In this document: positions 8,098 through 63,992 of the stretch, one piece after another
How the letters are laid out: every line of letters begins with the position of its first letter
How positions within the stretch are numbered: the first letter of the stretch is position 1
Virus record (IMG/VR): IMGVR_UViG_3300002839_000006
Span: 17,703 to 81,702 of that record
DNA: 64,000 nt
From: a virus
Taxonomy: Duplodnaviria; Caudoviricetes
Reading direction: 5' to 3' (one strand)
The notes under the pieces: model-generated
Seen by the model: only the letters and a program-made list of their open reading frames with translations
The model's database searches: none
Told to the model about the DNA's origin: nothing
Made by a program: the position numbers and the translations under genes

Positions 8098-8895
8098 TTA
8101 TTTGTTATTCACAGTATGACCTCTAACTTCTGATCTTTTAGAATCTTCATGTTGAGAAATATCTTCTGAAGTTATACCACCATATTCATTTCCATTTCTT
8201 TTAGATTTTATTCTGTATATAAAATCACCATCTTTAGTCTCAGTAACTTTTGTGACAGTACCCTTTAGATCAACCCCATTTGATTTAAATGATACTACAT
8301 TATCAATTTCATATTCTGCCTTCTTAGCTTTCTTCTCAACAGGTTTCTCTTCTTTCTTTTTCTCACTGCTTGTTCCAGCTGTTGGACCTTCTGTAGGTTC
8401 TGTCACTTTACTTTTATCTTTATTATCCCAAGTTGACATTTTATCTTTCTCACCTTCTGGTGCCTTGAATGTGTCCTGTGCTTCCTCTGACTTCCTACGC
8501 TGTAGTTCTTTATGTGCTGCCTCTCTTACTGCAGGATCAGTAGATACCTTAGTAGCATTCATTAGGGCTGCCTCGGATGCCGTCTTAGCAGCTGTCCCCA
8601 GATCTTGTGGTTGTGCTGTAGCTTTACCCTGTTCAGCTCTCTTATCAAGTGCTGCTTTAGCTTCTGGGTTCTCAGGTTTACCTGGTGCATCGCCACTTTT
8701 TACTGGCACCCATCCTGTAGCTTCTTTTCTCATTTTAACACCACTCCACTCCCTTATCTCACCCATCTGAGCTAATTTGCCTTTTATAATGTCCTCTTTC
8801 ATTTCATTGAATGTAGGTGCAAGATTTTTCTTAATTTGATCTTCTTGTTGTTGTTGTCCTTTTCTTATTTCGTCTTGGATATTCATTTTAATCAA
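8098..8895 (-). CDS. Head-associated family protein 1 (shared N-terminal module, SH3-like C-terminus)
   Basis: EDIIKGKLAQMGEIREWSGVKMRKEATGWVPVK is a divergent copy of the module found in four other proteins. Overlaps the portal stop. Confidence 0.65.
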   Translation of the reverse strand: MIKMNIQDEIRKGQQQQEDQIKKNLAPTFNEMKEDIIKGKLAQMGEIREWSGVKMRKEATGWVPVKSGDAPGKPENPEAKAALDKRAEQGKATAQPQDLGTAAKTASEAALMNATKVSTDPAVREAAHKELQRRKSEEAQDTFKAPEGEKDKMSTWDNKDKSKVTEPTEGPTAGTSSEKKKEEKPVEKKAKKAEYEIDNVVSFKSNGVDLKGTVTKVTETKDGDFIYRIKSKRNGNEYGGITSEDISQHEDSKRSEVRGHTVNNK

Positions 8896-10585
8896 TATTT
8901 ACGTTTTCTTCGATATATTTTAGACACTGCATAGTCAATGGATCGTCTTTACTCATCAGTGACTTCTTGAATGCCTGTGCTGGTGCACCTGATTGATCTT
9001 CCTGGTTGAACTTATCAAATGGATTTTGAGCACCTGCTTCTGGTTCACCTGTCATCTCATCTACTGCCTCGTTACTTCCCTGCCCACCCATCATCTTCAT
9101 TTGTTGTGCCTGTAGATAAACTGGATTCAATATAGTGTCAGTCTTTTCATTGAAAGGTCTTCCCATCTCAGCTTCAAATGCTGCTTCAAATGGCATCTGA
9201 CCTGAAGCTATCTTCTTAGCTATAAGGTCAACCAACTCCATCTCGTCCTGTGTATCAATACCAGTAAACACCAATTCATAGTCTGAATCTATCTCTGATA
9301 CCAACCACTTGGTCAATACCTTTTCCCAGAATAGGAGTATTGGCTTCAACCCTTTCTTTTTACTATGCTGTATTCTTTCTTTCTGTCCTGCCTGACCAAA
9401 TAACTGTGCTGACTTCTGGAACTGATAACCTAACTCTGAAGGATCAATAGTGAATACTGAGCATAACATAATAATAAGAAATTCCATCCATTGTTGGAAC
9501 TCCATATCCTTATTTGTTCCCTGTAAATCTATCCATTCTAAGTCTATCCCACTGAAGATCGGTAATTTATGAGAATTTCCGACACCAGCTATCATCTGTC
9601 TCCATGTCTGTCTAAAATCATTCAGAACATCCATATTGACACCACCATCCTTAATATTTATGAATCCCTTAGGGTTACTACCCTGCTTAAAGAAGTTACC
9701 GTTGTATTGCATTCCCCACAACGACCAAGTGATAATATCCAGCAGCACCTCTACCTCAGATGTACCATATCCATTCTTATCAATAGATGTGGCTTTATTG
9801 CGTTGAGCATACATCAGCTCCCAAGGATAGTAAACTATCTCCTGTTTGGTTACTGGGTTGACCATCACGTTGCTCTGGTATACCTGAGCGTACCGTGGAT
9901 ACTGGCCAAACTGTTCTGTATACTTCTGCTTAGTCTGCTCTCTGAAACGTGGATCTATCGTCTCTAATATCCTTATAGTTGAAGCATCTATTGCTGTGTG
10001 TCCTATTAATTCAAATCTTCTGTTACGTTCACATTCAGCTGCCAACTGGTCATAGGTCATTGAATCTCTTAATGCTTTGCGGGTGAAATCTGCTAAGTCA
10101 TCAGTAGTATCCCATTTACCTTTTAGTCCACCATTCTCTAAATAGTTGACTATATATTCTATTTTCTTCTTGTCTTCCCTGTTTTCTTTTTGTTTCCCAG
10201 TATCAAAAATAGATCTCTTCTTACGTATAGTATATCCCTCTGATTTATTGTCATTGGTGAAACGTAGGAAGTTCTGTACCTGGAATATTCTTGTATTTAT
10301 GATAGACCCTACAATAGGTGTATCACCTACCTTCTTCAATACATCAAATGATACTCGCTTCCGTTGTTGCTTATACCCATTAGTTGAATAGTAAGCTTCA
10401 AAAGGATCGAATACGAATGACTTGATGTCCTTCTTCTTTTTATTCTTTTCTAACTCCTGTAGATAATTTTGAGCCTTGTAGATGTCATTAACATCAGTTG
10501 ACATTAACTGCTTCTCCAGAAGGAGACTTTTCTCTATCTGGAGCTTAGCAGTTTGTTCGTCTATTTGTTCTATTTCTCTATTCAT
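8888..10585 (-). CDS. Phage portal protein (SPO1/Herelleviridae-like)
   Basis: Motifs IINTR..QV..F, RDSMTYDQ...E, IDASTIR, YG.SEVE, YNGNFFKQGS.PKG, F...WRQ...G..NS.K.P are typical of large-myovirus portals. Confidence 0.9.
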   Translation of the reverse strand: MNREIEQIDEQTAKLQIEKSLLLEKQLMSTDVNDIYKAQNYLQELEKNKKKKDIKSFVFDPFEAYYSTNGYKQQRKRVSFDVLKKVGDTPIVGSIINTRIFQVQNFLRFTNDNKSEGYTIRKKRSIFDTGKQKENREDKKKIEYIVNYLENGGLKGKWDTTDDLADFTRKALRDSMTYDQLAAECERNRRFELIGHTAIDASTIRILETIDPRFREQTKQKYTEQFGQYPRYAQVYQSNVMVNPVTKQEIVYYPWELMYAQRNKATSIDKNGYGTSEVEVLLDIITWSLWGMQYNGNFFKQGSNPKGFINIKDGGVNMDVLNDFRQTWRQMIAGVGNSHKLPIFSGIDLEWIDLQGTNKDMEFQQWMEFLIIMLCSVFTIDPSELGYQFQKSAQLFGQAGQKERIQHSKKKGLKPILLFWEKVLTKWLVSEIDSDYELVFTGIDTQDEMELVDLIAKKIASGQMPFEAAFEAEMGRPFNEKTDTILNPVYLQAQQMKMMGGQGSNEAVDEMTGEPEAGAQNPFDKFNQEDQSGAPAQAFKKSLMSKDDPLTMQCLKYIEENVNID

Positions 10586-10642
10586 AATCTATCGATATCA
10601 CTGACCATTCCTTCCTCGAAACTCGAAATTAGTGATATTCTT

Positions 10643-11194
10643 TTACGATGCTAATACAGTTACTGTGACTACATAACTCTTAGCTGCACCATTTGTTCCA
10701 GTCAATGCATAAGTTACTGGACTTGTGAAGTTGTTTGCAGTAGAAGCTGATGTTTGAGTGTCATTACCTATTTTAACAGTTGTGTTGGCTGTCTTAGTAA
10801 ACGTTGCTATCAATGATGCTGGATTAGTTCCAAAAGGTACACTCAATGTAATAGTGCCTGCAGCTTGATCAATTACAATTGCTGTTGCTGAAGGTAATGT
10901 GAATGTCAATAACTGGATAGCAAGGTTATCTACAACTGCAGCTGCTCTGTCTGTGTAGGAAGTCAGTGTCAGGTTTAATGCTACTGCTTTTGCTTTGAAC
11001 AGAGTTACTGTTGATTCCAGATAATCATGGAATAATCCTATTGCTTGTCCTGCTGAAAGTAGTCCTGGAGTTACTACTCCTGCTACTTCTGATTTAATCT
11101 CATTAATAAATAGGCGATCATTTGTACTGATGCCATTTGTCAAATAGGAAACTTTGAAGCTCTTGTCTATTGGACTAAATACGTATTGTTTCAT
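10643..11194 (-). CDS. Protein with C-terminal DUF5018/cadherin-like Ig domain (possible capsid decoration)
   Basis: LLTFTL...IDQAAGTITLSVPFGT..ASLIATFT...NNFTSPVTYAL..NG..KSYVVTVTV. Confidence 0.65.
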   Translation of the reverse strand: MKQYVFSPIDKSFKVSYLTNGISTNDRLFINEIKSEVAGVVTPGLLSAGQAIGLFHDYLESTVTLFKAKAVALNLTLTSYTDRAAAVVDNLAIQLLTFTLPSATAIVIDQAAGTITLSVPFGTNPASLIATFTKTANTTVKIGNDTQTSASTANNFTSPVTYALTGTNGAAKSYVVTVTVLAS

Positions 11195-11235
11195 TGTTTA
11201 TATGTCTTTTAAATTATTGGTTGCGGAATTATTCT

Positions 11236-12270
11236 TTACTCGTCTGAAATACCTTTATCAAAGCCCTCTTTCTCTAAATCTTCCCAACTTTTAAATATAA
11301 CAGGAGCACCTCTATTTGCTCTAAAATTTGCTCCGTCTTCATCCACACTTCTTACTTCATACTCTTTACCATCTTTATCAACAATAAAATCTCCAGCTTC
11401 AACATCGTCTAATTTATTGGTTGGATTTGTTTCTTTTTTATTTTCTACAGCATATAAATCATCATCGTCTCCAGAAGGAACTCTTCTCTCATCTTTTTTA
11501 TCTTCTTTCTTAGTCCCAAACTTCTGCCCTACTCTCCCCAACTTCATATTCTCAGGAGTGTTCATGTAGGTTCCGCCTCTTGACTTCTGGATCTCTCCCT
11601 CCTTTGGTTCATCCCAAAGTATCTGAGCAGCCCTTACAAACATAAAGTCTTCTTGTAGATGACCCCCTGCATTAGCTGAGATAACTTTAATAGGTGAGAA
11701 AGATTTGATTTCATCAGCTACTGCCTTCATGATCTTATCTTTGTTCATAGCTTTATTATTATAGCCATGTTTTGCGTTAAAATTCTTCACATTAGCGCTA
11801 TGCTCTTCAGATAATGCATCAAGCTCTTTTCTAAGAAGAACTTTCTTAGATTCTTCTGGTTCTGCTTTGATCTTATCTAAAACAACTCTTCTTTTTGCTT
11901 CGTGTTCTGTATTCAGCTTCTCGCCTTCACTAGCGTACTTGTCTCTATCACTTACTGCATCAAGTTCATCTTTATCTTTAGTCTTATTAGCTTTTACTTC
12001 AACCCAATCTTTATGGGAATTTCCTGTCTCAGACACTTTTCGCCAGATCACTCCCGAAGGCGAAGTGTGAATAGTTCCAATAGGGGATTTCTTGCCCTTT
12101 TCGATATCATTATCCAAACTCTTTGTGATCTCGTTCATGTTCTCCTCAGCAAATAGCTTTACTTGTTCGTAGGTGAATGCTTCTACCTCATTGAGTTTGA
12201 TCTTTCTGTCAAGATCGTCTTTATGGATTGTTTCCATTAAATTGTCTGTTATTGAATTAACAAAATACAT
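11236..12270 (-). CDS. Head-associated family protein 2
   Basis: DIEKGKKSPIGTIHTSPSGVIWRKVSETGNSHKDWVEVK; second internal motif EIQKSRGGTYMNTPENMKLGRVGQKFG; SH3-like C-terminus. Confidence 0.7.
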   Translation of the reverse strand: MYFVNSITDNLMETIHKDDLDRKIKLNEVEAFTYEQVKLFAEENMNEITKSLDNDIEKGKKSPIGTIHTSPSGVIWRKVSETGNSHKDWVEVKANKTKDKDELDAVSDRDKYASEGEKLNTEHEAKRRVVLDKIKAEPEESKKVLLRKELDALSEEHSANVKNFNAKHGYNNKAMNKDKIMKAVADEIKSFSPIKVISANAGGHLQEDFMFVRAAQILWDEPKEGEIQKSRGGTYMNTPENMKLGRVGQKFGTKKEDKKDERRVPSGDDDDLYAVENKKETNPTNKLDDVEAGDFIVDKDGKEYEVRSVDEDGANFRANRGAPVIFKSWEDLEKEGFDKGISDE

Positions 12271-12320
12271 TTTGAGTTTATAAAATTAAATAAATTAATT
12301 GTAAAAATAAAATTTATCAT

Positions 12321-12358
12321 AAAATAAAGAAAGGGAACCAATCCTTGACTGATTCCCC
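12321..12358 (-). terminator. Rho-independent terminator after the tmRNA coding piece
   Basis: Minus strand GGGAATCAGT-CAAGG-ATTGGTTCCC followed by TTTCTTTATTTT. Confidence 0.8.
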
Positions 12359-12683
12359 ATTCCCGAATTTAAGCTACTGCTTTCAACTCTTGAAACATTG
12401 GTATTGTTTTGCCTTTTATGGCCTAGCAACTTCTTTTTGTTATCCTCTCATATGCAATCGAAAATTCTTTATGCCCCTAGTATTAATTAATATTTGAGGG
12501 AAACAATCGTTAGTTAATCTTCCCTCGATCATGGCAACTGATCTCGTGGAGCATCTGGGATTCAAACCCAGGTCTTGCATTTAAGCCAATAATCTCACTG
12601 CTAGTATTTTTAAATAACTTTAAGCAGATCCATCTTGGAAGCCTTTGCTTTCTCACTGTGTTGTGTGATACCTACTTAATGTG
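12333..12683 (-). ncRNA. ssrA: Circularly permuted (two-piece) tmRNA
   Basis: In transcript order the acceptor piece ends ...TGCAA-GAC-CTGGG TTTGAAT CCCAG-ATGCTCC-A (12579-12547). A 69-nt intervening segment follows, then the coding piece starting GGGGCAT (12477), which pairs with ATGCTCC including the G3:U70 Ala determinant. Tag ORF 12413-12369 reads GKTIPMFQELKAVA*. Outer limits are approximate. Confidence 0.85.
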
Positions 12684-12756
12684 TATAAGCAATAGGACTC
12701 GAACCTATGATCTCTACATCCCAAATGTAGCGGGTTACCAACTCCCCTATGCCTAT
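12684..12756 (-). tRNA. tRNA-Pro (TGG)
   Basis: Acceptor ATAGGCA/TGCTTAT, D arm GGGG-AGTTGGTA-ACCC, anticodon arm CTACA-TTTGGGA-TGTAG, T arm ATAGG-TTCGAGT-CCTAT; CCA not encoded. Confidence 0.9.
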
Positions 12757-12762
12757 ATTTGT

Positions 12763-12803
12763 AAATGGAGTAGCTGATTGCTATCGTTTGTTCTACTCCA
12801 TTT
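12763..12803. repeat. 11-bp perfect inverted repeat upstream of tRNA-Pro
   Basis: AAATGGAGTAG (12763-12773) / CTACTCCATTT (12793-12803), 19-nt loop. Confidence 0.75.
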
Positions 12804-12921
12804 ATTTTTGTTCATAAATCCTGTGAATTAATTGTTCTTATTTATAAAAGCTAAACACTTTAAGAAGGCATAAAATTAAATAAAATATCTTTCACTTTTA
12901 TATTTTATTTAAAATTTATCC

Positions 12922-12944
12922 TTATTTATAATAGTTTTAACTAA
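12922..12944. promoter_or_regulatory. 23-bp palindromic site, 51 bp from TAAAATT box at 12871 (upstream of tRNA-Pro/tmRNA)
   Basis: TTATTTATAA-TAG-TTTTAACTAA. Confidence 0.6.
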
Positions 12945-13974
12945 AGAATGGGTAGAAGCAGCCCTGTGACTTAGTTATTCCTCTTTCACCTACCCAAATG
13001 TCTATAATCCAAAAACCTGTATGTGCTGAAATTCTCTTTGCCCTCATCCACTTACTTTGTTTTTCTATACACCCTGCACCGTAGCAATGTATGTTCCGTT
13101 CAAACACATATACTGCCTTGTGAACATGACCTAATAGTAGTAGACTTGGCTTCTCCCCACCTGTAAAACTTTCAACCACCTTTTGTATCCGGTAAGATGT
13201 TGCGTAGGAGGAGCTATCCTCTCCATGCCATAATTTAATTATTGCTCTCCCACCCAGATTTATATCTCCTTCATCATGACCTAAAAAAGTAGCATTAGGT
13301 AACATCTCGCATATATCTTTTACGATCAATGCACCATTGGATTTTATAAACCATCTGTCGTGGTTGCCATCTATCATATAAATTTTACCATCCCACTTAC
13401 TGAAGATGTCTACTGCCTCTCTTCTTTGTTGGTCATAACCCAGTTGGTCTAACTCGTATATCTGACCAGGTCGATTTGACATACCCTCAGTTACATCTCC
13501 TGCATGGCATATGAAATCTACTTTCTCCTTCTTAAATTCTTCAAATGCTTGGAATAGTTCTTGTTTATTGAAATACTTGCTCCCTATATGTGTATCTGCA
13601 AGTAAACCTATCCTTATATGATCACCCTCAAAGTCTACCAGTGTAGCATTCTGCTTAGCTGTTATCCCTGTACCATTTGCTATTGACTGTAGCTCGGCAG
13701 GTGTATACATCTCTGATATCTTCTTCAGTAAAGGATGCTTGTCAAGACTAAATTGACTTTCTAACATCCCTGTTTCTACTTTCTCTTCTTGTTTCTCTCT
13801 TTTCTCTCTATCATCTGACCCATTACAACCTTGATAATATTGAATGAGTTTTCTTACTCCATTCAAAGTATCCCAAACATTAGGGTTCTCTTTAAATATA
13901 AGTTTTGCTACTCCATTCTTACTTAAATCTGGATAATCTTTTAAATATTTCTTAATTATGTCTGATTTACTCAT
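12937..13974 (-). CDS. Calcineurin-like metallophosphoesterase with N-terminal extension
   Basis: DTHIGS, GDVTEG, GNHD, HG and GHVHK motifs. Confidence 0.9.
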   Translation of the reverse strand: MSKSDIIKKYLKDYPDLSKNGVAKLIFKENPNVWDTLNGVRKLIQYYQGCNGSDDREKREKQEEKVETGMLESQFSLDKHPLLKKISEMYTPAELQSIANGTGITAKQNATLVDFEGDHIRIGLLADTHIGSKYFNKQELFQAFEEFKKEKVDFICHAGDVTEGMSNRPGQIYELDQLGYDQQRREAVDIFSKWDGKIYMIDGNHDRWFIKSNGALIVKDICEMLPNATFLGHDEGDINLGGRAIIKLWHGEDSSSYATSYRIQKVVESFTGGEKPSLLLLGHVHKAVYVFERNIHCYGAGCIEKQSKWMRAKRISAHTGFWIIDIWVGERGITKSQGCFYPFFS

Positions 13975-14077
13975 TACTTTTATTTAATAATCTATCGAAA
14001 TAAACATGTCTAACAGTGTTAAATCTATTATTGGTATATTTATATTGATATACTCTTAACCTTTGTTAGACCTCATT

Positions 14078-17666: not shown

Positions 17667-17755
17667 TTCATTTTCTCCTTTTTCTTTTGTCTTGTCCTAC
17701 AGGGAAAATCCTGACTCGGCGATTGATTATTAATTAGATACAGTTCTATTATATA

Positions 17756-26827: not shown

Positions 26828-27280
26828 TTATTTGAATTTATTGTTTATAGAATCCCGATATTTGTTTATCTTTTCCTTAAAATTCAAAAAGAATTCTTTA
26901 CTTGTTTCATTCAATATACGAATAGTATTCTCAGTATCTTTAATTATTTCATCTACATTGGGATCATTATGCACATTAACAATCTCTTTTCTTTTTCTTT
27001 CCACTAATTTTTGTATCTCATCTTCAGTGTAAAGAACACCTGCTTCATTCAATAGGTATCTTACCCTCTTCTCTGTTTCTTTAATAGTAGGTGGAACAAA
27101 CTCTTTTACTTTCTTCCATACGTTACCATTTTTGTCGTCTTTCAACATACTACAAATAGAATGTGTTAAATCTCCACATCTTTCTACACCATGTAAATCA
27201 CATAATGAACAAGGATGATTTATGAGTTCATACTCTTCTTTCCCTATCTTTATTTTTAAATTATTAATCAAAAGCTTCAT
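26828..27280 (-). CDS. Protein with N-terminal Cys4 domain
   Basis: Start MKLLINN at 27280 (ATGA overlap with the groEL stop); PCSLCDL...RC...IC. Confidence 0.6.
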   Translation of the reverse strand: MKLLINNLKIKIGKEEYELINHPCSLCDLHGVERCGDLTHSICSMLKDDKNGNVWKKVKEFVPPTIKETEKRVRYLLNEAGVLYTEDEIQKLVERKRKEIVNVHNDPNVDEIIKDTENTIRILNETSKEFFLNFKEKINKYRDSINNKFK

Positions 27281-28887
27281 TCCTTCTCTCCTTTTTCTTT
27301 TATGTTGTATACTACACATTCTGTAGTAAGTAGTAGACCTGCTACACTGGCTGCGTTCTCCAGAGCAACCCGAGTTACCTTAGTAGGATCAATCACCCCT
27401 GTGTCAAAGAACAATTCATATTCTTCTGTGGCTACATTATAACCATGATCGATCACAAGTTCATTTGGGACGTTGATAACATTGTTAAGAATCACATCTT
27501 CTGGTAGTCCTGCATTACGCATTATCTGTCGGAAGGGTTCCTCTATGGCTTTCTTTATAATTGATACACCGAGTTTCTCATCCTCATTCTTTACTTTGAC
27601 ATCTTCAAGAACTTTGATACATCTCAGTAAAGCAACACCACCACCAGGAACTATACCTTCAGTTATGGCAGCCCTTGTAGCATTAAGTGCATCGTCGAAA
27701 CGATCCTTACGCTCCTTCATATCAACCTCTGATGTTCCACCTACATATATTACTGCTACACCCCCTGCCATCTTAGCAAGACGTTCCTTGAACCGTTCTT
27801 CATCATATGGACTTGGTGCATGATCAATCTGTGATCTTATTTCTTCTACCCTCTTTTTTATTTCTTCTTTATTACCTTCACCACCTATAATAGTAGTACT
27901 GTTTGCTGAAATGATAGCCTTAGTTGCCGAACCTAATTGGTCGATGTTGATATCTTCTAACATCATCCCGAGGTTATCGTCTACCACTGTTCCACCTGTT
28001 AGTACTGCAATATCTGACATAGAGTCCTTACGACTTGAACCATATCCAGGAGCCTTCACTGCGCAAACTAATACATTACCCTTAACCTTATTTATGATAA
28101 GTATTTGTAGTGCTGTACTATCTATCTCGTCAGTTAGAATAAGTAATGGTCTCTTCAATTCCATACTTATTTCCAATGCCCTAATAAGCTCTTGTGCTAA
28201 TGAGATTCTCTTATTGTTAAGTAGGATTAAAGGCTTGTCTAAGACAGCTTCATTCCTTGATTGATCAGTTATGAAATAGGGGGATAAGAATCCCTTAGGA
28301 AACTGCATACCTTCTACTACTGATAACTCAGTTTCATATCCAGAAGCTTCTTCAATCGAAATTACGCCATCTTTTGAAACTTTCTTAATTGCCTCTGATA
28401 TATTTTTACCTATTTCCTCATCACCGTTTGCTGATATAGTGGCTACCCTTGCCATATCATCCAAATCAGTTAGTGGCTTAGAAATCTCTTTCAACTTCTC
28501 TACTACTACCTTTACTGCTTTATCTATTCCTCTTTTCAAATCCATTGGACTGGCACCTGAATTAAGGTGTTTCAATCCTGTAGTGAATATGATTTGAGCA
28601 AGTACTGTAGCAGTGGTTGTACCGTCTCCCGCATCTGAATTTGTTCGGTGTGCCACGGACTTGATCAATCTTGCCCCCATGTTTTCTATAGGATCATAAA
28701 GATCAATACTTCTCGCTACGGAGACGCCATCTTTTGTTATAATTGGTTCACCTCCATATTGTTCTATAATTACATTTCTACCCTTAGCTCCCAAAGTTAC
28801 TTTGACAGCATCAGAAACTTTTATGATGCCTGCCTTTAGTCTTTGTCTGGCATCATCTTGAAACAAAATATCTTGTGATTGATTCAT
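27277..28887 (-). CDS. groEL: Chaperonin GroEL (phage-encoded)
   Basis: VTLGAKGRNV, ITKDGVSVA, AGDGTTTATVLA, GIVPGGGVALLR, GVIDPTKVTR; lacks the GGM tail. Confidence 0.97.
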   Translation of the reverse strand: MNQSQDILFQDDARQRLKAGIIKVSDAVKVTLGAKGRNVIIEQYGGEPIITKDGVSVARSIDLYDPIENMGARLIKSVAHRTNSDAGDGTTTATVLAQIIFTTGLKHLNSGASPMDLKRGIDKAVKVVVEKLKEISKPLTDLDDMARVATISANGDEEIGKNISEAIKKVSKDGVISIEEASGYETELSVVEGMQFPKGFLSPYFITDQSRNEAVLDKPLILLNNKRISLAQELIRALEISMELKRPLLILTDEIDSTALQILIINKVKGNVLVCAVKAPGYGSSRKDSMSDIAVLTGGTVVDDNLGMMLEDINIDQLGSATKAIISANSTTIIGGEGNKEEIKKRVEEIRSQIDHAPSPYDEERFKERLAKMAGGVAVIYVGGTSEVDMKERKDRFDDALNATRAAITEGIVPGGGVALLRCIKVLEDVKVKNEDEKLGVSIIKKAIEEPFRQIMRNAGLPEDVILNNVINVPNELVIDHGYNVATEEYELFFDTGVIDPTKVTRVALENAASVAGLLLTTECVVYNIKEKGEKE

Positions 28888-30847: not shown

Positions 30848-31005
30848 TACTTTATTTTTTCAAATATAATATTATTTTCTTGATTCCTCAATGTTTTTGA
30901 ATGATCATTTTTCCCTAAACTTATTTGAGTGGGTATTATATTAAAAGCCTTGCATTTTAATAAACCGATATAATTATCACAGTTTAAACATCTTAAATTT
31001 TGCAT
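30847..31005 (-). CDS. Small Cys/His protein coupled to the zincin effector (52 aa, absent from the ORF track)
   Basis: Manual translation MQNLRCLNCDNYIGLLKCKAFNIIPTQISLGKNDHSKTLRNQENNIIFEKIK*; TAATG overlaps at both ends. Confidence 0.7.
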   Translation of the reverse strand: MQNLRCLNCDNYIGLLKCKAFNIIPTQISLGKNDHSKTLRNQENNIIFEKIK

Positions 31006-31970
31006 TACGCGAGTATTTTATTTTGTTTCTCGATAAGTCTTATCATTACAGCATCTTTTAATTTTTTATTTCTATAAAGAGCATTTGATTCTGCCCAAAA
31101 TTCGTTATATTCTGTCATGGCATAGTCGGTATATAATTTTTTAAGTGACACGTCAACCATTACTTCAGAATATCTTTTTGCTATTTCCTTGTTAATTTTA
31201 CTTTTTATTATTCTTGAATCAGCCTGTACTGCGTGTGTCCATTCATGCTCAATGACGTATTTTATTCTTTCTTCGTATGTCTCTGCATATTGAGAAGATG
31301 AAAAATATTCAGGTGATTCTCTTAACGCTTTCTGATATTCATGGAGTCTGTTTTTTAATTTCGGAATATCGCTATCCCATCCTAAATCTTTGTACTCCTT
31401 TATTTCTTTTTCAATATCAGATATATTTCTATTTATCCTAACATAGTTTGATGTGTTTTTATCAAACCCATTTTTGATTTCTTTTGTGTTTATACTCAAC
31501 TCGGCATCATCCCTTATTGCTAAAACGCCACCTTCAGTCCATGTCTTATTTAAGTACTCAAACTTTTTAAGCGTTATTCCTGTTTCTTTTTTTAACACAA
31601 TTAGCTCTTTATTTATAGTATTAATGTCATGTAACGTGAACCCATCAGCGTTTACAGATTTTGATATTGAATTATTCAAAATGAAATCTTCTGCTTTTAT
31701 CATGTTACCCGAAGGAACAAATTCAACTGTATTAATCTTCAATTCTGCCTTTGGATATTCTTTCTTCTCCTCAACTTTTGGCTTGTCTTCTTTTATCACC
31801 TGCCAGTCATTATTTGAGTCACCAGTGTCTGATATCTTCTTGTACTGTTTGTCTCCATAAGTTCTGATAGTTCCAATAGGTAGCTTTCTTCCCTTCTCTA
31901 TGTAGGAGTTGTCCACTCTTTCTCTTTGTGATGTGAATTCGTCCTGTATGTCCTTATGAATGTCAGTCAT
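31005..31970 (-). CDS. Head-associated family protein 3 with C-terminal zincin (HExxH) domain
   Basis: N-terminal YIEKGRKLPIGTIRTYGDKQYKKISDTGDSNNDWQVIK; C-terminal VIEHEWTH...YAMTEYNEFWAE. Confidence 0.75.
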   Translation of the reverse strand: MTDIHKDIQDEFTSQRERVDNSYIEKGRKLPIGTIRTYGDKQYKKISDTGDSNNDWQVIKEDKPKVEEKKEYPKAELKINTVEFVPSGNMIKAEDFILNNSISKSVNADGFTLHDINTINKELIVLKKETGITLKKFEYLNKTWTEGGVLAIRDDAELSINTKEIKNGFDKNTSNYVRINRNISDIEKEIKEYKDLGWDSDIPKLKNRLHEYQKALRESPEYFSSSQYAETYEERIKYVIEHEWTHAVQADSRIIKSKINKEIAKRYSEVMVDVSLKKLYTDYAMTEYNEFWAESNALYRNKKLKDAVMIRLIEKQNKILA

Positions 31971-45699: not shown

Positions 45700-46464
45700 T
45701 TATATTTGATTTAAAGGATTATTAGGCGATTTGCATCTAGGACCATGATATCTTATCATATTACTAGCGTTTTTGCTTTCAAGCCCACAGTATTCACAAG
45801 TTATAACTTTTCTTCTGGTCCAAGCCTCTTTATAGCGCTGACACGCTTCGGGGCTCTTCTTTGTCCCTTTGAGAGGGTTACCAAATTCTTCAAATCTTTT
45901 TCTTTTAGATTCTTTAATCTGATCCATTTTTTCTTTTGAATGCGTTTTGCCAAAGAAAGGATTATTTTCGCCAGCAAATCTTCCCGTCATGGCATTATGT
46001 TGTTTCAACTTTGACTCTTCTGATCTGGTTGTTCCAAAGAGTGGGTTGTCTTTACCTAGTTTATGAACACCATACATGGGATTTAATTCTCCAGTTCTTC
46101 CAAACATTGGATTATTTTCCCCTGAAATATCTGGACGGTTCAATTTCATCTTTTCTTTAGAATCTTCTCTATGTTTATACCCAACTTTCTGTCCAGTGCC
46201 TTTGATATGGACATTATAACCCACTAAAGGATTAGTGCAATCTAATTCAACTTGCCAAAATTTTTCTTTACTCGATAAATCTTCATAATTGCAATATTCT
46301 AATACAATGCGGACAAAATTTTCTTTCCCTAGATCTTTAATTGCTTTTTTAAATTTAGCTCCACCGCCTAAGTATTTATCGTTTAGATTATTGGTAGAAT
46401 GATGACCAACGTATATCAACCCATTTATTAAACAAGTTACTTTATAAATAAAATGATATTTCAT
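45700..46464 (-). CDS. Free-standing GIY-YIG homing endonuclease with NUMOD3 repeats
   Basis: FIYKVT..ING.IYVG.H...YLG.G; repeated GENNP(M/F)FG..(H/R)S.E.K; C-terminal C..C...H..C. Confidence 0.88.
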
Positions 46465-56040: not shown

Positions 56041-56041
56041 C

Positions 56042-57780: not shown

Positions 57781-57782
57781 TT

Positions 57783-59024
57783 TTACTGCTGTTTTTGTTT
57801 CTCATATCTCTCTGTGACTTTCTTTGATTTCATCTCGAATAACTCAATGAACTTCTGGGGAGTTATGTCCCACATCAGGCAGATGTTGACGAAGTACTTG
57901 AACGCATCTATGAGCTCTTCGGATAATAGATCTATGTCCACCGTCTTCTTCGGCTTGTGCTGCTTGTAGTTAATCTCATTCATCACTTCGGATAGCTCTA
58001 TGATCATGGCTGTGAAGTAGTCCTTCGTGAGCGATTCCCTCTGATGAGTCTCGGTCAGGCTGTTGAAGTCCACGAAATTGGAAGTGAATCTCTTCTGCAT
58101 GTTCCAGATGTTGGACATATCGAATGATGATAGAGCCTTCTCAATGACATCCTGCTGCTTGAATGAGTGGTCCCAAGTGGCGAACCTGCCCACAAACTCC
58201 ACTCTGTTAGGAGGTATGTTATTGCTGTCAGAGAATATGAGTCCATCGATCTCGTGATAGAAGTCCAACACTGCTGCTCCAGTAGGGAGATGCTCTACGC
58301 AGTCCTCTTGAGATAGCCTCCCTGAGAACTCATATAGGAATGCGTCAGACTGGTCCCTCCTACGCTTTGATATTCTGGTGTACTTGACATCTGCGTCCAC
58401 AAAATAAGCGAGGTCGAACTTCTCTTTCGAGAGGCAATCAGGTAGCTTATCGCACAATAGGAAGGTTATCGTCTCAGATTTCAGCTCCTCGGTCCTCTGC
58501 TGGTAGTACATGCCCCAGAATGCTCTGGCGCTGATAGTCGAGACCAGCTTGTCATATTTGTATCGAGTGTCGTGAGTGATGATCTCTGTCTCAGTTATCT
58601 TGATGACCGTCTCATTTATGACCTCTACTCCCTCTCTCAGTCTGGATAGGATGTCCTGGAACGATACTTCGAAGACTGAGATGAAGTTGTCGCTGGTGCT
58701 GAGCGAGAGGTCTTTAGCGTCGAACTCAGGGTCGTTGAGCTTCTTCGATATGAACTTCTTCTTGTCCTCTATCGTGAGCTTTGTCAATATCTTGTCAGAC
58801 TTGACATATTTTATGAGCTGCGTCTTCTTTACTATTGGGAGCTTGAGGTCCTCGAGCAGCCTCTCGGTGAATGGAGTGGCGTGTAGGTAGAATATGTTCT
58901 CGAAGAATTTGTTGTTGAGCTTGCCCCCGATATCTGGGGATATGATCGTGAAATCTCTGTTGTAGTAAGCGTATATTAGGCCGCTTATGCCTGCGCCGAG
59001 GATATAGTTATCTCTCACTCTCAT
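57783..59024 (-). CDS. Fusion of an FAD-dependent oxidoreductase (Glf/amine-oxidase-like) and an all-alpha dUTPase/dCTPase-like domain
   Basis: N: ILGAGISGL...IGG, LVSTI, VGRFATW.H....DVI. C: ELSEV.NE..YKQHK...EELID..KY. Confidence 0.75.
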   Translation of the reverse strand: MRVRDNYILGAGISGLIYAYYNRDFTIISPDIGGKLNNKFFENIFYLHATPFTERLLEDLKLPIVKKTQLIKYVKSDKILTKLTIEDKKKFISKKLNDPEFDAKDLSLSTSDNFISVFEVSFQDILSRLREGVEVINETVIKITETEIITHDTRYKYDKLVSTISARAFWGMYYQQRTEELKSETITFLLCDKLPDCLSKEKFDLAYFVDADVKYTRISKRRRDQSDAFLYEFSGRLSQEDCVEHLPTGAAVLDFYHEIDGLIFSDSNNIPPNRVEFVGRFATWDHSFKQQDVIEKALSSFDMSNIWNMQKRFTSNFVDFNSLTETHQRESLTKDYFTAMIIELSEVMNEINYKQHKPKKTVDIDLLSEELIDAFKYFVNICLMWDITPQKFIELFEMKSKKVTERYEKQKQQ

Positions 59025-59325
59025 CTTTCAGAATCTTTGCTATTATGAATATTGCATAGTTTGCGCAATCGATGGCTGAGTCCAGAGCCACCTCTCTGTT
59101 GATTATCTGCTCTTGTCCGCTCTCCATGCTCATCTGGAGCTTGAATCGCTTCATCTTGTTGAGCACCTGATAGTAGAGGAACATATAGTCGTCTCCGAGA
59201 TAGGTGTCTCCATACTGATCTGCTCTATCTGCTCTGGTGATGAGCACTCTATCGAGAGCATCTAGGAACTCCTGGCCCAGTTTGGATGAGTCAGGAGTCA
59301 CCGTGATCTGATTTACTTCTGGCAT
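59008..59325 (-). CDS. Second DUF1599/Nmad1-like protein
   Basis: R..QYGD...NK.KR...E..LDS.ID.ANYAI. Confidence 0.65.
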   Translation of the reverse strand: MPEVNQITVTPDSSKLGQEFLDALDRVLITRADRADQYGDTYLGDDYMFLYYQVLNKMKRFKLQMSMESGQEQIINREVALDSAIDCANYAIFIIAKILKDESER

Positions 59326-60149
59326 TTAGATGCCTCTTTCATGAAGTGTCCCAAGCCCTCTACTTTGATGGACAGCCAGTACTTGCCCTTATCAGTCTTG
59401 ACAGATACAACTTTGCCCTTCAGCTCCTGATTAGAAGCCAGCTTGGAGTTCTTGGCAGATGTGAATGTCACATCATCGCCCTTGGCGAAAATACATGCAA
59501 GCATGTCATCTGACGATGCTGCAGGAGCTTTCTTGTCTTTGGCAATGTTCTTATCAGCCTCTTTCGTCTTGATGACTGGAGCGTCTGCTTTTGCGATCTT
59601 CATGGATGCTGGAGGCAGCGAGGTACGAGTAGATGTTTTTACTTCAATAGGGGCAACTTCTTGCTCTTCTACCTGTTCTACTTCCTGTTCTTCAACTGAT
59701 GGCTGCTCAAGGAGCTCAGCGAGCACTGCCTTCTTTGATTCTTTCTTTACTTCCTCAACTTGCTCCTGAGGAACTTCTTTCTTCTTCATATTGCTTTTAG
59801 ATTTTGCGTTCTTGTCCAATTCGACGTCCATAGTGTGGAACATCTTTACTTTTTCGCTTCCGTCCAGCAGAGCATACGCATACTGGTCGTCCTCGATTGA
59901 TTTGAATTTTGTAATTGTGCCAGGGAACCACTTGCCCCCTACCCTGAAATTTGCCCTGTCATCTGCTGCGATGATATCGCTGTTGCGATCAGTGTATTCA
60001 TCAGATGCTGGCGTTGCAGCCTGAGCTACTTTGATCTTCTCGATTAATTTAACTTTATCCATTATTCCTGTTTTTGTTATTCCTAATAGTGTTGCTTCTT
60101 TCCCCAACTGGATGGTGGTCATGTTTCTCAATTCTCTGTCAGTTCTCAT
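59313..60149 (-). CDS. Hypothetical protein with short N-terminal helical motif and two SH3-like domains
   Basis: LR.M...QL...A..LGI...K..LI; beta-rich domains separated by an E/K/A/P linker. Confidence 0.6.
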   Translation of the reverse strand: MRTDRELRNMTTIQLGKEATLLGITKTGIMDKVKLIEKIKVAQAATPASDEYTDRNSDIIAADDRANFRVGGKWFPGTITKFKSIEDDQYAYALLDGSEKVKMFHTMDVELDKNAKSKSNMKKKEVPQEQVEEVKKESKKAVLAELLEQPSVEEQEVEQVEEQEVAPIEVKTSTRTSLPPASMKIAKADAPVIKTKEADKNIAKDKKAPAASSDDMLACIFAKGDDVTFTSAKNSKLASNQELKGKVVSVKTDKGKYWLSIKVEGLGHFMKEASKCQK

Positions 60150-60228
60150 GGTTGATATCTTATAGTTGTGACTCTGTAAAAGTATAACATTTATACTTCT
60201 ATTTTACAAATGATATAAAATAAAAGTG

Positions 60229-60251
60229 AAATTTGTAAAGATTATAGATAA
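60229..60251. promoter_or_regulatory. Degenerate 23-bp palindromic site, 52 bp from TAAAAGT variant box at 60177
   Basis: AAATTTGTAA-AGA-TTATAGATAA; lies upstream of the base-modification operon. Confidence 0.45.
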
Positions 60252-60256
60252 TAGTT

Positions 60257-60282
60257 GAAATGAGCAGAAGAGTATCTGCTCA
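60257..60282 (-). terminator. Probable terminator
   Basis: TGAGCAGA-6nt-TCTGCTCA (60261-60282) followed by TTTC on the minus strand. Confidence 0.55.
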
Positions 60283-60377
60283 TGTGACGTTCAGTATCAA
60301 ATGCTTTTTAGGTAAGACAAAACCTTCACGAAGTTCTTTGAATTTTACGAGCATATTGCGAAATTGGGTTTGATTAT

Positions 60378-61637
60378 TTATTTAATATCTCCATTCTTAT
60401 CCCACCCTTTATCTCCTTCAAGATTATTATCAGGAGTTTTGGTTTTAAGAATGTCTTGATATCTGATTTTGAATTTCTTTGCTACTTCTTTAGCTGCCTT
60501 GATACTGCATTGATTAGATGACATTGCAGCAAATGTTTTATAAAGAGATTTCTTACGATCTCTAAATTCCCTGTTAGCTTCTTCAAGTGAATTGTCTTCC
60601 TTCTTCTCTTCTACTGGTTTTACTTCTTCTTTCTTGGGTTCAGGCTTAGCTTTACTATCAGCTAATAATGCAATGAATCTTTTAACTCTTAAATCATTAT
60701 ATTTAACTCTCAACTCATCAATTTTATCTTTAGCTTTCACTCCTTCACTTGTCATAAAATAATCATAATCACTCTTAATATTTTTTGCTTTAAATTCTTT
60801 ATCTAATGCGTTAATTTTATTTAATAAAACAATTTCTTCCTTGGGAACTTCAACTTTGAATTCTTCTTCTTTCTTGGGTTCAGACTTAGCATACCTAGAC
60901 TGTTTTTCTTGAATTAATGAACGCAACATTTTTGAAGCTGAAGCATTAAGAATTGTATGTCTGGATATAGAAGTAAGGGTGTCTAAACGATATTTTAAAT
61001 CTCTATCTGAAAGTTCTGAAACTTTTTCATGTTCTGAATTATCTATAGAAGATATTAATTCCCTTTTCATATAAAATTCATCTTTCTCTTCTTTACTTTT
61101 CTCTTCCTTCTCATCAAACTTCTTCAGATAGTCTGGACTAAATGACTTTACTTCACCATCAGGAAGTTTAACTTTAATAAAAGTAGGTTGACTAATCAAA
61201 TCTGTTTTCTCTTCCCCAACTACTTCTAATGTTTTTCCTTTTAAATCAGATAAAGACACTAGATTAATATCATCGCCTAATTTAACCTTATCTCCAACTT
61301 TAAAATCATATGTAGGTTTCTCTTCAGGAGCAGTTCTAGCAGCCCAATCAATTTTCTTAGGTTCTTCTTTCTTTTCTTCAGTCTTAGGTGTTTCAGGATG
61401 ATCTTTGTCACCTTTCTTAACTCTTACCCAGTCTTTATGGCCATCGCCAGTGTCTGTCATCTTCTTCCATGTCCCGGCTGAGTTCACGTGGATCGTCCCG
61501 ATGGGAGATTTCTTAGCCTTCTCGATATCAGTCTCTACTCTCTTCACAAGATCGGGAGTGGCCTCACTGCCATAAAAAGATTTTAGTATCTCTTTCTGTT
61601 GTTCTTGTGCTTTGCGGATGTCGTCTTCTATGCTCAT
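60378..61637 (-). CDS. Head-associated family protein 4
   Basis: DIEKAKKSPIGTIHVNSAGTWKKMTDTGDGHKDWVRVK; KOW/SH3-like domain; EPKKEE linkers. Confidence 0.7.
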   Translation of the reverse strand: MSIEDDIRKAQEQQKEILKSFYGSEATPDLVKRVETDIEKAKKSPIGTIHVNSAGTWKKMTDTGDGHKDWVRVKKGDKDHPETPKTEEKKEEPKKIDWAARTAPEEKPTYDFKVGDKVKLGDDINLVSLSDLKGKTLEVVGEEKTDLISQPTFIKVKLPDGEVKSFSPDYLKKFDEKEEKSKEEKDEFYMKRELISSIDNSEHEKVSELSDRDLKYRLDTLTSISRHTILNASASKMLRSLIQEKQSRYAKSEPKKEEEFKVEVPKEEIVLLNKINALDKEFKAKNIKSDYDYFMTSEGVKAKDKIDELRVKYNDLRVKRFIALLADSKAKPEPKKEEVKPVEEKKEDNSLEEANREFRDRKKSLYKTFAAMSSNQCSIKAAKEVAKKFKIRYQDILKTKTPDNNLEGDKGWDKNGDIK

Positions 61638-61681
61638 TTTGTTGAATATTTTGTAGCGTTAAAATTATTAATTAAAATTCA

Positions 61682-61858
61682 TTACACTTCGTTTACATCA
61701 ATGTTTTTCTTTTTATCAGGCCAGCTTTTACTAATAAGTTTAGTGGGATTAATTTTACTCAACTTTAATAGAGCTTTCTTTTTGGCTTCAGTTTTATTTT
61801 TGGCAAAAAGTTTAATTGTAACAGTTTCCAATTCAATATCAATTTCAAATGGTTTCAT
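61682..61858 (-). CDS. Small basic protein (58 aa, absent from the ORF track)
   Basis: Manual translation MKPFEIDIELETVTIKLFAKNKTEAKKKALLKLSKINPTKLISKSWPDKKKNIDVNEV*; follows the box at 61882. Confidence 0.6.
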   Translation of the reverse strand: MKPFEIDIELETVTIKLFAKNKTEAKKKALLKLSKINPTKLISKSWPDKKKNIDVNEV

Positions 61859-61931
61859 GATCTTCTCTTTTTAATTTGCCATAAAATTAATAATTAAACT
61901 GATACGAAAAATATAAATCTTATATTTCTCA

Positions 61932-61954
61932 TAATTTATAATCGTTATTGATTA
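61932..61954. promoter_or_regulatory. 23-bp palindromic site, 50 bp from TAAAATT box at 61882
   Basis: TAATTTATAA-TCG-TTATTGATTA. Confidence 0.55.
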
Positions 61955-62452
61955 GATGTCCCAATCGACCAACGAGTCAGTCAGTATTCTAGATACATAG
62001 GAGTAATTGAACTGCTCCAATTCTCCCTTTACTTTTACTGTGACGCTATTATCTGAGAACATATTCTTAATGACGGGCAGGTCGAGATATTCACTGTCGA
62101 GTTTGATCCTCACTTTCACTCCCTCTCGGAAGAAATAGATTGAGTCCCAACGTCCCATTATAGACTTTGACTTCTCATCTCTATACTCAAAATTAGGGAG
62201 GCCATACTCAGCAAAAAACTCTCTGATACATCGTTCTTTTGTGCTGTTGCTGTTGAAGATAGAAGGCAAGTTATTCTTCTCACTTATCTTCTCAATCTTG
62301 TCCCTCTTGCAGATACAATAGTTCTTATACTTCTCTGAGAAAGGTTTCGGGTAGATCTTCGAACGTACATAATAGGAGATGAATTCTTGTTGAAGTACAG
62401 AATAGAAGTCTATTAACGAAAGATCCCTTGACTTGGTTACTGGTTGTTCCAT
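61952..62452 (-). CDS. Hypothetical protein
   Basis: 166-aa ORF. Confidence 0.65.
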   Translation of the reverse strand: MEQPVTKSRDLSLIDFYSVLQQEFISYYVRSKIYPKPFSEKYKNYCICKRDKIEKISEKNNLPSIFNSNSTKERCIREFFAEYGLPNFEYRDEKSKSIMGRWDSIYFFREGVKVRIKLDSEYLDLPVIKNMFSDNSVTVKVKGELEQFNYSYVSRILTDSLVDWDI

Positions 62453-62480
62453 TTTATTTATCTATGTTCGTCTAATCATT

Positions 62481-63992
62481 TTATTTATATTTTATCAATA
62501 GTTTCTTATTCATCACATCATCAGTGAATCCTCCTATTGTTTTTCTATAATCTTCACGCCAAAAGAAAGGCATTCCTCCATCATCTCCATTAGACATTAG
62601 TTCGTAGAATTTCTTAAGCCAATTTCTTTTGTCTTCCATACTTATATCTGAATGAATTCTTACCTTACGACCTTGCTCATCTTTAGTAAACTGATTATAT
62701 TTTTTAGCAAGTAAAACTAGTCCAGAGGGTAATGCATTATGCTTAACTTCAACTTCTGACTCAGCAAGCCATTTATTAGCTAATATATCTATGTAATAAT
62801 CGCCAAGATTATCAATATCACTTGGATTTAATGAAGCGCGATATCTAGGACCATCCCCTCTATGATAACCACCCACAAGATTGTTTAATCTATTATCAAA
62901 TTTACAAGGCAAAACTTTTATTTCTCTACCTGCCTTTTTCAACGCTGCGTTAAAAGAATCTGCTTCCTTTATAGAACTTACAAAAATGCTATCAACATCA
63001 TCTATAGACAGCTTCCCATATATTTGAGCTTCCATATATGAAGAAACAGATGCTTCTGTAAATTCATCAATATTTTTAGCTTCATTTATTTTATTCCACA
63101 TATCTGAGTTAGGATCATTATTATTAATGCCCCAAATGAGTTTATCATCTACATCATTTAATTTAGTAGGGGGCGCTACAGAAGTTAAATCTATTTGACC
63201 TTTATACGAGATAGAACCATTATCATTGAACGAATCTCCCAAAGTAATACTAGTTCTATCTTTGACAGCAGATGTCTTAAATTTTACATATGCATTTCCA
63301 TAATTTCCTTCGGAGATAGGTTCATAACTCATCTCTTCTTTTGAAGAAATAAATCCGTATTTTGGAAAATTATCTGCTTCGCTTGAATTAGCTTCTGTAT
63401 CTATGCCAAAAATAAACTTCTCTTTCAGCGTTCTCTCTTCTCCAATCGTTTTAAAAGACCCTTTTCCCGTTTCAAGACTATTTTTAAATGCGTCTGATTT
63501 ATTAATAATCTCTCTAATAAGCGTTCCACTCTTAATAGCCATATAAACGGCACTGTCATTAATAAAACTTTTTAATTTTTTCTCTAAATTCTCTTTGCCT
63601 CCTAATTTATCATATAGTTCATTTTGATCTTTAAATTTTCCTTTTGATGTTTTTTGAAACATTTCTGATGTCGTCAGATTCTCCCTAGCAATATTAAAAT
63701 TTTTCGGGAAACTCTCATTCATTTTAATTTTCTCTGATTTTAATTCTGATTTTGAACACTCTTCCTTCTCTTCGATTTTAGATTCAGACTTAACTTTTTT
63801 CTCCAAAACCCAATCCTTGTGACCATTACCAGTATCAGATACTTTGACCCAAGTTCCTTGTTTATTAACGTGAATAGCTCCAATAGGAGACTTCTTTCCC
63901 TTTTCGATATCAATATTGATCGTAAACGACTTCGCGATCCACTCTCTCTGTAAATTAATACCCTCTTGAATCGATTTAAAAATATCTTCCAT
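62481..63992 (-). CDS. Head-associated family protein 5 with DUF3626-like (possible ADP-ribosyltransferase-fold) domain
   Basis: N-terminal DIEKGKKSPIGAIHVNKQGTWVKVSDTGNGHKDWVLEK; internal PKYGF...YG...F...VKDRTSIT.GDS...YMEAQIYG.L...DV..I. Confidence 0.7.
   Translation of the reverse strand: MEDIFKSIQEGINLQREWIAKSFTINIDIEKGKKSPIGAIHVNKQGTWVKVSDTGNGHKDWVLEKKVKSESKIEEKEECSKSELKSEKIKMNESFPKNFNIARENLTTSEMFQKTSKGKFKDQNELYDKLGGKENLEKKLKSFINDSAVYMAIKSGTLIREIINKSDAFKNSLETGKGSFKTIGEERTLKEKFIFGIDTEANSSEADNFPKYGFISSKEEMSYEPISEGNYGNAYVKFKTSAVKDRTSITLGDSFNDNGSISYKGQIDLTSVAPPTKLNDVDDKLIWGINNNDPNSDMWNKINEAKNIDEFTEASVSSYMEAQIYGKLSIDDVDSIFVSSIKEADSFNAALKKAGREIKVLPCKFDNRLNNLVGGYHRGDGPRYRASLNPSDIDNLGDYYIDILANKWLAESEVEVKHNALPSGLVLLAKKYNQFTKDEQGRKVRIHSDISMEDKRNWLKKFYELMSNGDDGGMPFFWREDYRKTIGGFTDDVMNKKLLIKYK

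Follow-up and report, generated by a model that had tools for sequence, protein, structure and literature searches.

Five genes in a 64,000-nt stretch of DNA from a virus of the Caudoviricetes (Duplodnaviria; positions 17,703 to 81,702 of IMG/VR virus record IMGVR_UViG_3300002839_000006; below, the window) encode proteins that share an N-terminal leader and a small module and differ in their C-terminal payloads. We favour, with somewhat better than even confidence, the reading that these proteins, here members 1 to 5, are head-loaded, protease-trimmed and probably ejected effectors, and we hold with similarly modest confidence that the phage is a Bacteroidota-type myovirus with Herelleviridae-like head genes whose five proteins are paralogous head cargo. 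We infer head incorporation, cleavage and ejection from homology, domain partners, gene context, folds and motif statistics. A first-pass annotation of the window had proposed a constant head-directed module joined to interchangeable effectors. Four independent computational lines support this proposal in part: the module co-occurs with standard polyvalent effector domains, its genes sit in head-morphogenesis clusters, the payload of member 5 is fused to MuF in other phages, and the motif at the start of the module resembles in its behaviour the prohead-protease code of the clade. The notion of a purely N-terminal tag and the equation of tag with cleavage module did not survive, and the concept has published precedents.

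Each protein would begin with an acidic leader helix (26-58 aa) at its N-terminus, continue with a site that fits the prohead-protease consensus (D/E)-[IL]-x-K↓[G/A/S] (the arrow marks the cut), and then have a basic three-stranded beta module of ~30 aa that would be retained after maturation, with a variable payload behind it; the predicted payloads are one SopF-like ADP-ribosyltransferase (ART), one zincin and three others. The leader, with or without the module, would bring the protein into the assembling prohead, where the prohead protease (G000 8346-9170) would cut the leader off at the motif used for trimming the propeptide of the major capsid protein (MCP) and for degrading the scaffold. 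The mature module-payload proteins would remain in the head and exit with the DNA at infection. In related phages, cassettes located between the domains of large polyvalent proteins would turn these into polyproteins that are cut into separate effectors inside the head. Since a cut at EK↓G would remove the leader only and leave the conserved beta part on the payload, the "tag" and the "cleavage module" would be two different pieces.

The source contig in IMG/VR is 81,702 bp long and was judged 74% complete; a 114-kb contig carries identical proteins. All five open reading frames (ORFs) translate cleanly on the minus strand, as do all genes discussed within the window, which is strand-uniform. 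The true start of member 1 is probably the ATG at 8886, 1 base past the stop codon of the portal gene. The members and their parts, assigned by profile hidden Markov models (HMMs), motif consensus and an AlphaFold2 (AF2) model, are as follows.

8098-8886, minus strand: member 1, 262 aa, directly downstream of the portal gene; short-form module, second conserved motif and variable C-terminus
8782-8886, minus strand: acidic leader of member 1, residues 1-35, ending D-I-I-K↓G with predicted P1 Lys35 (motif consensus)
8698-8793, minus strand: module of member 1, residues 32-63, short form ...GEIREWSGVKMRKEATGWVPVK (outside-only HMM, E 4.7e-17)
8455-8592, minus strand: second conserved motif of member 1, residues 99-144, AAK-ASE-AL-NATK-S-DP-VREAAHKEL-RRK-EEAQ-TFKAPE
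8888-10585, minus strand: portal, between members 1 and 2 (phrog_12, E 3e-34; 31% identical to the CP-51 portal)
11236-12270, minus strand: member 2, 344 aa, two genes upstream of the portal (long-form HMM)
11992-12108, minus strand: module of member 2, residues 55-93, long form, predicted cut after Lys58 (HMM)
31005-31970, minus strand: member 3, 321 aa, with leader, module and zincin-like payload (HMM, structural neighbours)
31791-31904, minus strand: module of member 3, residues 23-60, predicted cut after Lys26 (HMM)
31233-31247, minus strand: HEWTH (HExxH) in the payload of member 3, residues 242-246 (sequence)
60378-61637, minus strand: member 4, 419 aa, with leader, module and long Lys/Glu-rich payload (HMM, AF2)
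61416-61529, minus strand: module of member 4, residues 37-74, predicted cut after Lys40 (HMM)
62481-63992, minus strand: member 5, 503 aa, with leader, module and ART-like payload (HMM, fold)
63798-63911, minus strand: module of member 5, residues 28-65, predicted cut after Lys31 (HMM)
62487-63554, minus strand: payload of member 5, residues 147-502, DUF3626/SopF-like ART fold (BLASTP, Foldseek)

The four long-form modules follow the pattern D/Y-I-E-K-G/A-K/R-K-x-P-I-G-T/A-I-H/R ... S/T-D/E-T-G-N/D-x-x-K/N-D-W-V/Q-x-x-K. An HMM built on these four cores and searched against the 665 six-frame ORFs of the 81.7-kb contig matched exactly its four source ORFs, each at E ~1e-27, with no further ORF below E 0.1. 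Member 1, whose module is without the TGN--KD loop, is in register with member 4 across the N-terminal 77 residues (BLASTP E 7e-5). To avoid circularity, an outside-only HMM was made from 13 unrelated database members and no window sequence; it matched member 1 at E 4.7e-17 and members 2, 3 and 4 at E 1.6e-4 to 1.3e-3. Because this profile recognises member 1 and three of the other four, all five ORFs are, by profile comparison, homologous. On the same kind of evidence, member 1 has the short form that is usual in the family, and members 2-5 have a variant in which an S-x-TGN-x-x-KDW loop is inserted; the copy that the first-pass annotation had singled out as the most divergent (8098-8895) is in fact the ordinary one. 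The leaders align between members as well (M-x-I-x-D-x-I-x-K-x-Q ... I-x-K-S-F), bearing out the shared core and leader reported there.

The module is ~35-40 aa long, opens with D-I-E/I-K-G/A and is preceded by the acidic leader helix. Leaders have an isoelectric point (pI) of 4.4-5.1, and the part of the module after the predicted cut is basic (pI 8.3-10.1) and aromatic-rich. In the AF2 model of the module with the sequence of member 4, two helices, the second of which (28-42) ends in DIEKAK, are followed by a three-stranded sheet. No Pfam or PHROG match was obtained over the module in the five window proteins or the long relatives, and the ESM Atlas yielded no usable structural match for it. 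The best hit of a PDB profile search was non-significant (profile A4 against 9uxa_L, the N-terminus of human BCL7B with K-D-D-I-K-K ... K-W-V-P-V, E 0.13) and probably reflects chance. DUF5661 was rejected as the identity of the module, since it is a 65-aa domain in its own right that occupies another part of these proteins. The second conserved motif of member 1 recurs after the module in polyvalent proteins and gives a weak match to Pfam HEAT_2. Outside the window, a 332-aa ORF (L012 (G000) 2578-3576, minus strand) pairs a comparable leader, M-D-F-Q-Q-K-I-R-E-E-Q ... I-I-K-A ... E-I-E-K-G-G, with another small motif behind it, G-G-K-I-I-G-R-T-K-S-G-Q-P-I-Y; the module HMMs did not match this ORF (E 2.5), which is a possible sixth cargo protein with a leader.

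The proposed cataloguing of C-terminal domains by HMM was carried through as an exhaustive profile search over 1.84 billion representative proteins (E<=1e-3), which returned 149 relatives and polyvalent effector partners. The K, G and W positions are invariant across these relatives, and 112 of 147 have the motif inside their first 70 residues; the others, which are 700-2500 aa long, carry the module internally and in some cases more than once. A word-index protein search had found 1 relative only, so that the exhaustive search was needed for the rest, and among 50,697 deposited phages, megablast and tblastn searches with the module retrieved only Chryseobacterium phage MA9V-3 (PV245944), the only cultured carrier. 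Chance or compositional similarity would draw on the Lys/Glu-rich make-up of the proteins, yet is refuted by the E-values of the long-form HMM (~1e-27 per copy), of the outside-only HMM and of the exhaustive search with its invariant positions, and its probability is negligible. Two of the 149 matches, P0046 and P0131, align via a T-G-N-x-x-x-D-W-like stretch only; they are probably the two HNH_3 endonucleases counted among the relatives, and are likely false positives or very distant relatives.

Among 56 long relatives, the Pfam domains sharing a polypeptide with the module include NUDIX (7), DUF5661 (7), Kinase-PolyVal (5), ART-PolyVal (4) and ADPrib_exo_Tox (4), with Zeta_toxin, ParB, SNF2/ResIII, UvrD, RelA_SpoT, LPD1 and RadC further represented; PF18762, PF18760 and PF18796 are among these co-resident families. 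A single 1105-aa protein at locus L006 has the order NUDIX, Kinase-PolyVal, module, ART. Payloads of mid-sized module proteins mostly have no Pfam family. On a 103-kb viral contig (L037), a 1780-aa ORF (2250-7589) flanked by ORFs of 930 and >1800 aa contains five module copies. As judged from these architectures, the module is not solely an N-terminal tag, being also internal, in up to five copies, in large polyvalent proteins, and it therefore looks like a cassette for processing plus a retained domain. The 845-aa NUDIX-zincin-zincin protein of this genome has a duplicated ~45-aa linker (I-x-K-A-x-x-L-G-I ... N-H-K-Y-I/L-x-K-E ... K-W-x-Y-x-Y), which also forms the C-terminal extension of the L006 protease (L006 10991-12082; 36% identity) and could represent another type of small beta cassette.

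The rest of the head cluster occupies the 17.7 kb preceding the window (L012), in the order MuF-like gene, homing endonuclease, 845-aa polyvalent protein, DUF5661 protein, protease, scaffold candidate, MCP; the DUF5661 protein thus adjoins the protease. The products on which the cleavage argument draws are listed below.

G000 8346-9170, outside the window: head-maturation (prohead) protease (phrog_1028, E 7e-38)
L012 5878-7368: MCP (phrog_752, E 1e-62)
L012, between protease and MCP: scaffold candidate, 285 aa, acidic
G000 9610-12147, minus strand, outside the window: 845-aa NUDIX + two-HExxH polyvalent protein

The candidate code [ILVFM]-x-K↓[GAS] is over-represented in the scaffold candidate, the polyvalent protein and the protease. 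In this genome, [ILVFM]-x-K-[GAS] was observed 11 times in the scaffold candidate (1.6 expected), 11 times in the polyvalent protein (3.5 expected) and 5 times in the protease (1.7 expected), compared to 86 observed and 82 expected in all non-head proteins pooled. Four related scaffolds contain 10-12 sites each vs ~1.7 expected, six related proteases are also enriched, and Bacillus phage CP-51 (Herelleviridae) shows 13 vs 1.4 in the scaffold and 9 vs 1.45 in the protease. Scaffolds of the clade and CP-51 together have 68 sites where 10 are expected; the pooled z is 19 for scaffolds and 15 for proteases. In the same pooled scaffolds and proteases, neither the reversed motif nor R, E, D or Q at P1 was in excess, and the portals and MuF-like proteins of relatives showed no enrichment. 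Each MCP has one N-terminal site, immediately ahead of a conserved A--AG-QTGRD block, and K22 and A23 are invariant in six MCPs despite propeptides of differing length and sequence. The module opening D-I-E-K-G/A is the best-fitting form of the scaffold-site consensus (D/E)-(E/D)-[IL]-x-K↓[S/G/A]. All five leaders end in the motif of the MCP junction, the link from motif to cleavage being statistical. A complex prediction of MCP, scaffold and leader-module scored 0.00, which speaks neither for nor against binding. The MCP propeptide opens M-F-D-I-H-D and resembles the leader of member 3 (31893-31970; M-T-D-I-H-K-D-I) and that of member 2 (12097-12270; internal M-E-T-I-H-K-D-D); cargo leaders may imitate the propeptide.

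In polyvalent proteins the motif sites cluster between Pfam domains. This clustering, together with the internal copies of the module, up to 5 in the L037 ORF, and the company of DUF5661 (with the module in 7 of 56 proteins, beside the protease here), would also suit a cassette that is a polyprotein-processing signal and linker only. The cut would be made by the prohead protease or by another protease, head targeting would fall to some other element, such as the MuF-like protein, DUF5661 or the payloads themselves, and some window proteins may never enter the head. We regard this as unlikely: a bare site needs neither a conserved 30-aa beta module behind it nor a conserved leader ahead, and about three quarters of the family carry the module at the very N-terminus, where a linker would have nothing to separate.

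Gene order ties the family to head morphogenesis. As the first-pass annotation had noted, two members flank the portal (8888-10585) and three are scattered among replication genes. Member 1 lies directly after the portal and member 2 two genes before it; members 3-5 are encoded in a region of replication and nucleotide metabolism, among genes for ribonucleotide reductase, GroEL, helicase, ligase, SbcCD, UvsX, a DnaE-type polymerase and a ThyX-like protein. Compared to their CP-51 counterparts, portal, protease and MCP show 28-31% identity. Because the nearest portals come from a fecal phage, MA9V-3 and Bacteroides DAC phages, the host is probably a member of Bacteroidota. Locus searches with the tighter subgroup alignments A5, A6 and A8 yielded 17 further viral loci, 11 of which have module genes amid those for portal, MuF-like protein, protease, scaffold and MCP, often as two or three module genes in tandem or as a polyvalent protein immediately upstream of the protease; comparable search patterns gave these 17 viral loci vs 1 locus in 596 Gb of bacterial genomes. 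Both L006 and MA9V-3 have module genes within this cluster, with two module ORFs just ahead of the MuF-like gene in MA9V-3; the module proteins of that phage are 148 aa (97075-97521) and 520 aa (95271-96833) long. A 277-aa module protein occurs in five near-identical viral contigs (L023, L025, L026, L027 and L029; about 7932-8762), whose neighbouring genes have no detectable similarity to the head genes of this phage.

A basic, aromatic-rich, three-stranded module could instead be a small nucleic-acid- or protein-binding beta domain acting in the cytoplasm, the proteins being unpackaged and the association with head genes reflecting late co-expression. The three members amid replication genes and the two probable HNH_3 endonucleases among the matches would agree with this. 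We consider it quite improbable given the conserved placement beside portal and protease, the co-resident domains predicted to be virion-delivered, the fusion of the same payload to MuF elsewhere, and an opening motif that matches the one at MCP and scaffold sites. A k-mer inspection of upstream regions found no class-specific promoter motif.

Orthologues of member 1 lie directly or closely behind the portal in L013-L017 and L021; in five related contigs their N-terminal ~143 aa are almost invariant and their C-termini mutually unrelated. L014 also has a P0002-like gene at the position of member 2. The kept place of member 1, which begins 1 base after the portal stop, its N-terminal 143 aa being far more conserved than any payload, and the largely low-complexity, Lys/Glu-rich character of members 1 and 4 could point to a structural family, in which member 1 would be a scaffold-like or portal-associated assembly factor and its paralogues duplicates with decorated C-termini. 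The ART fold of member 5 and the putative zincin of member 3, the polyvalent partners that are enzymes acting on host molecules, and the presence of a separate scaffold candidate argue against this account, which we rate as low as the cytoplasmic one.

Each window protein combines the module with at most one recognisable payload. In the model of member 5, the predicted local distance difference test score (pLDDT) exceeds 85 across most of residues 95-503. Foldseek matched its payload best to SopF-NAD (7dn9/7dn8; probability 1.00, E 3e-5), then to OspC3/CopC and DarT, all NAD-using ART folds, with 10-12% identity and a template-modelling (TM) score of 0.45 at best for SopF-type structures. The Pfam DUF3626 match (PF12294, 23.7 bits) is under the gathering cut-off of 27; the homologues P0156 and P0172 pass it at 29.1 and 40.3 bits, and homologues also show DRAT matches. 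SopF is the DUF3626 prototype (PMC6682159). By its modelled structure, the payload of member 5 is a SopF-like ADP-ribosyltransferase fold, bearing out the DUF3626-like domain first proposed. Homologues of this payload include several proteins of 725-740 aa with Phage_Mu_F as their N-terminal half: member 5 residues 147-502 align with the C-terminal half of P0178 (35% identity, BLASTP E 5e-54), which has Phage_Mu_F at 156-239, and P0177 and P0173 carry it too. Because the payload aligns with the C-termini of these fusions, one effector is, as read from the alignments, carried by MuF in some phages and by the leader-module cassette here. No Phage_Mu_F (PF04233) match was found in any of the five proteins at E<=0.1.

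In member 3 the HExxH motif of the candidate zincin payload is present, as HEWTH. Structural neighbours of this payload in the ESM Atlas include metalloprotease, LPD1 and M90 clusters as well as the C-terminal parts of MuF-family and Phage_min_cap2 clusters; TM is 0.52-0.56 for the metalloprotease, Peptidase_Mx and M90 clusters, and Pfam gave no match to the payload. The SH3/KOW-like payloads of the first-pass annotation were not recovered in Pfam or, for members 2 and 4, in PDB sequence searches, which returned nothing for members 2, 3, 4 or the protease. Residues ~228-250 of member 2 read S-R-G-G-T-Y-M-N-T-P-E-N-M-K-L-G-R-V-G-Q-K-F-G directly after an I-Q-K↓S site; N-x-x-L-G-R-V-G-like peptides recur in large phage proteins.

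The principle has precedents in the T4 capsid targeting sequence (CTS) and Alt, the ejection proteins of SPN3US, MuF fusions and polyvalent proteins; what is new is the module itself, its tie to the hydrophobic-x-K↓small code and its use on five separate genes of one genome. To our knowledge, the routes by which effector proteins reach phage heads are known for few models, namely T4 CTS, MuF and P1 Dar. The T4 protease recognises L/I-x-E. Like T4 Alt, member 5 would be an ART effector loaded into the head. In T4 (internal proteins and Alt) and SPN3US/phiKZ, N-terminal propeptides end in the prohead-protease motif, cargo proteins form paralogous families, and scaffold and protease are multiply cut (PMC10052503; PMC5512222); the five proteins here would parallel this. 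SPN3US has paralogue families of propeptide-bearing, protease-trimmed ejection proteins, and T4 targets by propeptide (PMC10052503). The SPN3US protease gp245 removes the N-terminal propeptides of ejection proteins, cuts several sites in long propeptides, and follows an A-x-E code, unlike the hydrophobic-x-K↓small code here (PMC10052503). Unlike in T4 and SPN3US, the protease lineage here is Herelleviridae-like, the conserved beta module would stay on the mature protein, and the system is predicted from sequence.

MuF (SPP1 gp7 / Mu gp30) fusions similarly join a constant head-associated N-terminus to interchangeable C-terminal effectors, among them the payload of member 5. However, the five proteins have no MuF domain, the module is ten times smaller, and the phage has a separate solo MuF-like gene. 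Polyvalent proteins were predicted by Iyer, Burroughs, Anand, de Souza and Aravind (2017) to be packaged and delivered with the DNA, and have two to fifteen distinct domains per polypeptide (PMC5512222). The module shares polypeptides with the effector repertoire described there, and its genes stand beside virion genes (PMC5512222). In contrast, each of the five window proteins, whose genes are dispersed through the genome, is a solo form with a single payload and falls short of the multi-domain definition; among the products of this genome, the 845-aa NUDIX-zincin ORF (G000 9610-12147) is the true polyvalent protein. The module itself matches no Pfam PolyVal or LPD model, and the available portion of PMC5512222 contains no link to a prohead-protease motif. 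Compared to SopF/DUF3626 ARTs, member 5 shares the best structural match (SopF-NAD) and a weak DUF3626 Pfam match, but differs in its low identity (10-12%), TM <=0.45, sub-cut-off Pfam score, and phage rather than type III effector context.

Several observations weigh against the head-cargo reading. Three of the five member genes sit among replication genes rather than head genes. The genome also encodes a MuF-like protein, which means that the module does not simply take the place of MuF. This 304-aa protein is itself weakly supported (phrog_115 E 7.5e-6, with no confirming Pfam match); its C-x-x-C ... HPYCRC motif also speaks for the MuF family. For the module, AF2 reached a pLDDT of 66, a prediction of medium confidence only. 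Not every match to the motif can be a genuine site, since some are located within folded domains, two of them in the L006 Kinase-PolyVal, and the strict conservation of D-I-E-K-G could be structural, as a helix cap ahead of a beta hairpin, rather than mark a cleavage site. The accessible literature contained no experimental proof of Lys-specific cleavage by Herelleviridae-type proteases, which the first-pass annotation had taken as established for SPO1/A511/Twort-like prohead proteases, and we found no virion proteomics, N-terminal or expression data for any module carrier, MA9V-3 included. We advance only tentatively, as a possibility well short of even, the further proposal that leader, D-I-E-K↓G and beta module form a portable, self-sufficient capsid-loading and processing signal in Herelleviridae-type heads, that polyvalent proteins are cut at each cassette inside the capsid, and that the basic module tethers effectors to the packaged DNA for co-ejection.

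If the head-cargo reading is correct, the cassette and a readable protease code would allow sequence-based prediction of head cargo across a large clade of uncultured Bacteroidota phages, gut phages included, would explain the maturation of giant polyvalent proteins, and would provide a small tag with which to direct foreign proteins into capsids. Dozens of payloads of no known family are flagged as candidate early-acting effectors.

Two further features of the genome were recorded. The phage encodes its own GroEL (window 27277-28887, minus strand; phrog_5725, E 2e-163). Two paralogous homing-endonuclease genes (phrog_314) are located between the SbcC and UvsX genes (window 45700-46464, minus strand) and between the MuF-like and polyvalent protein genes (L012 12187-12942).

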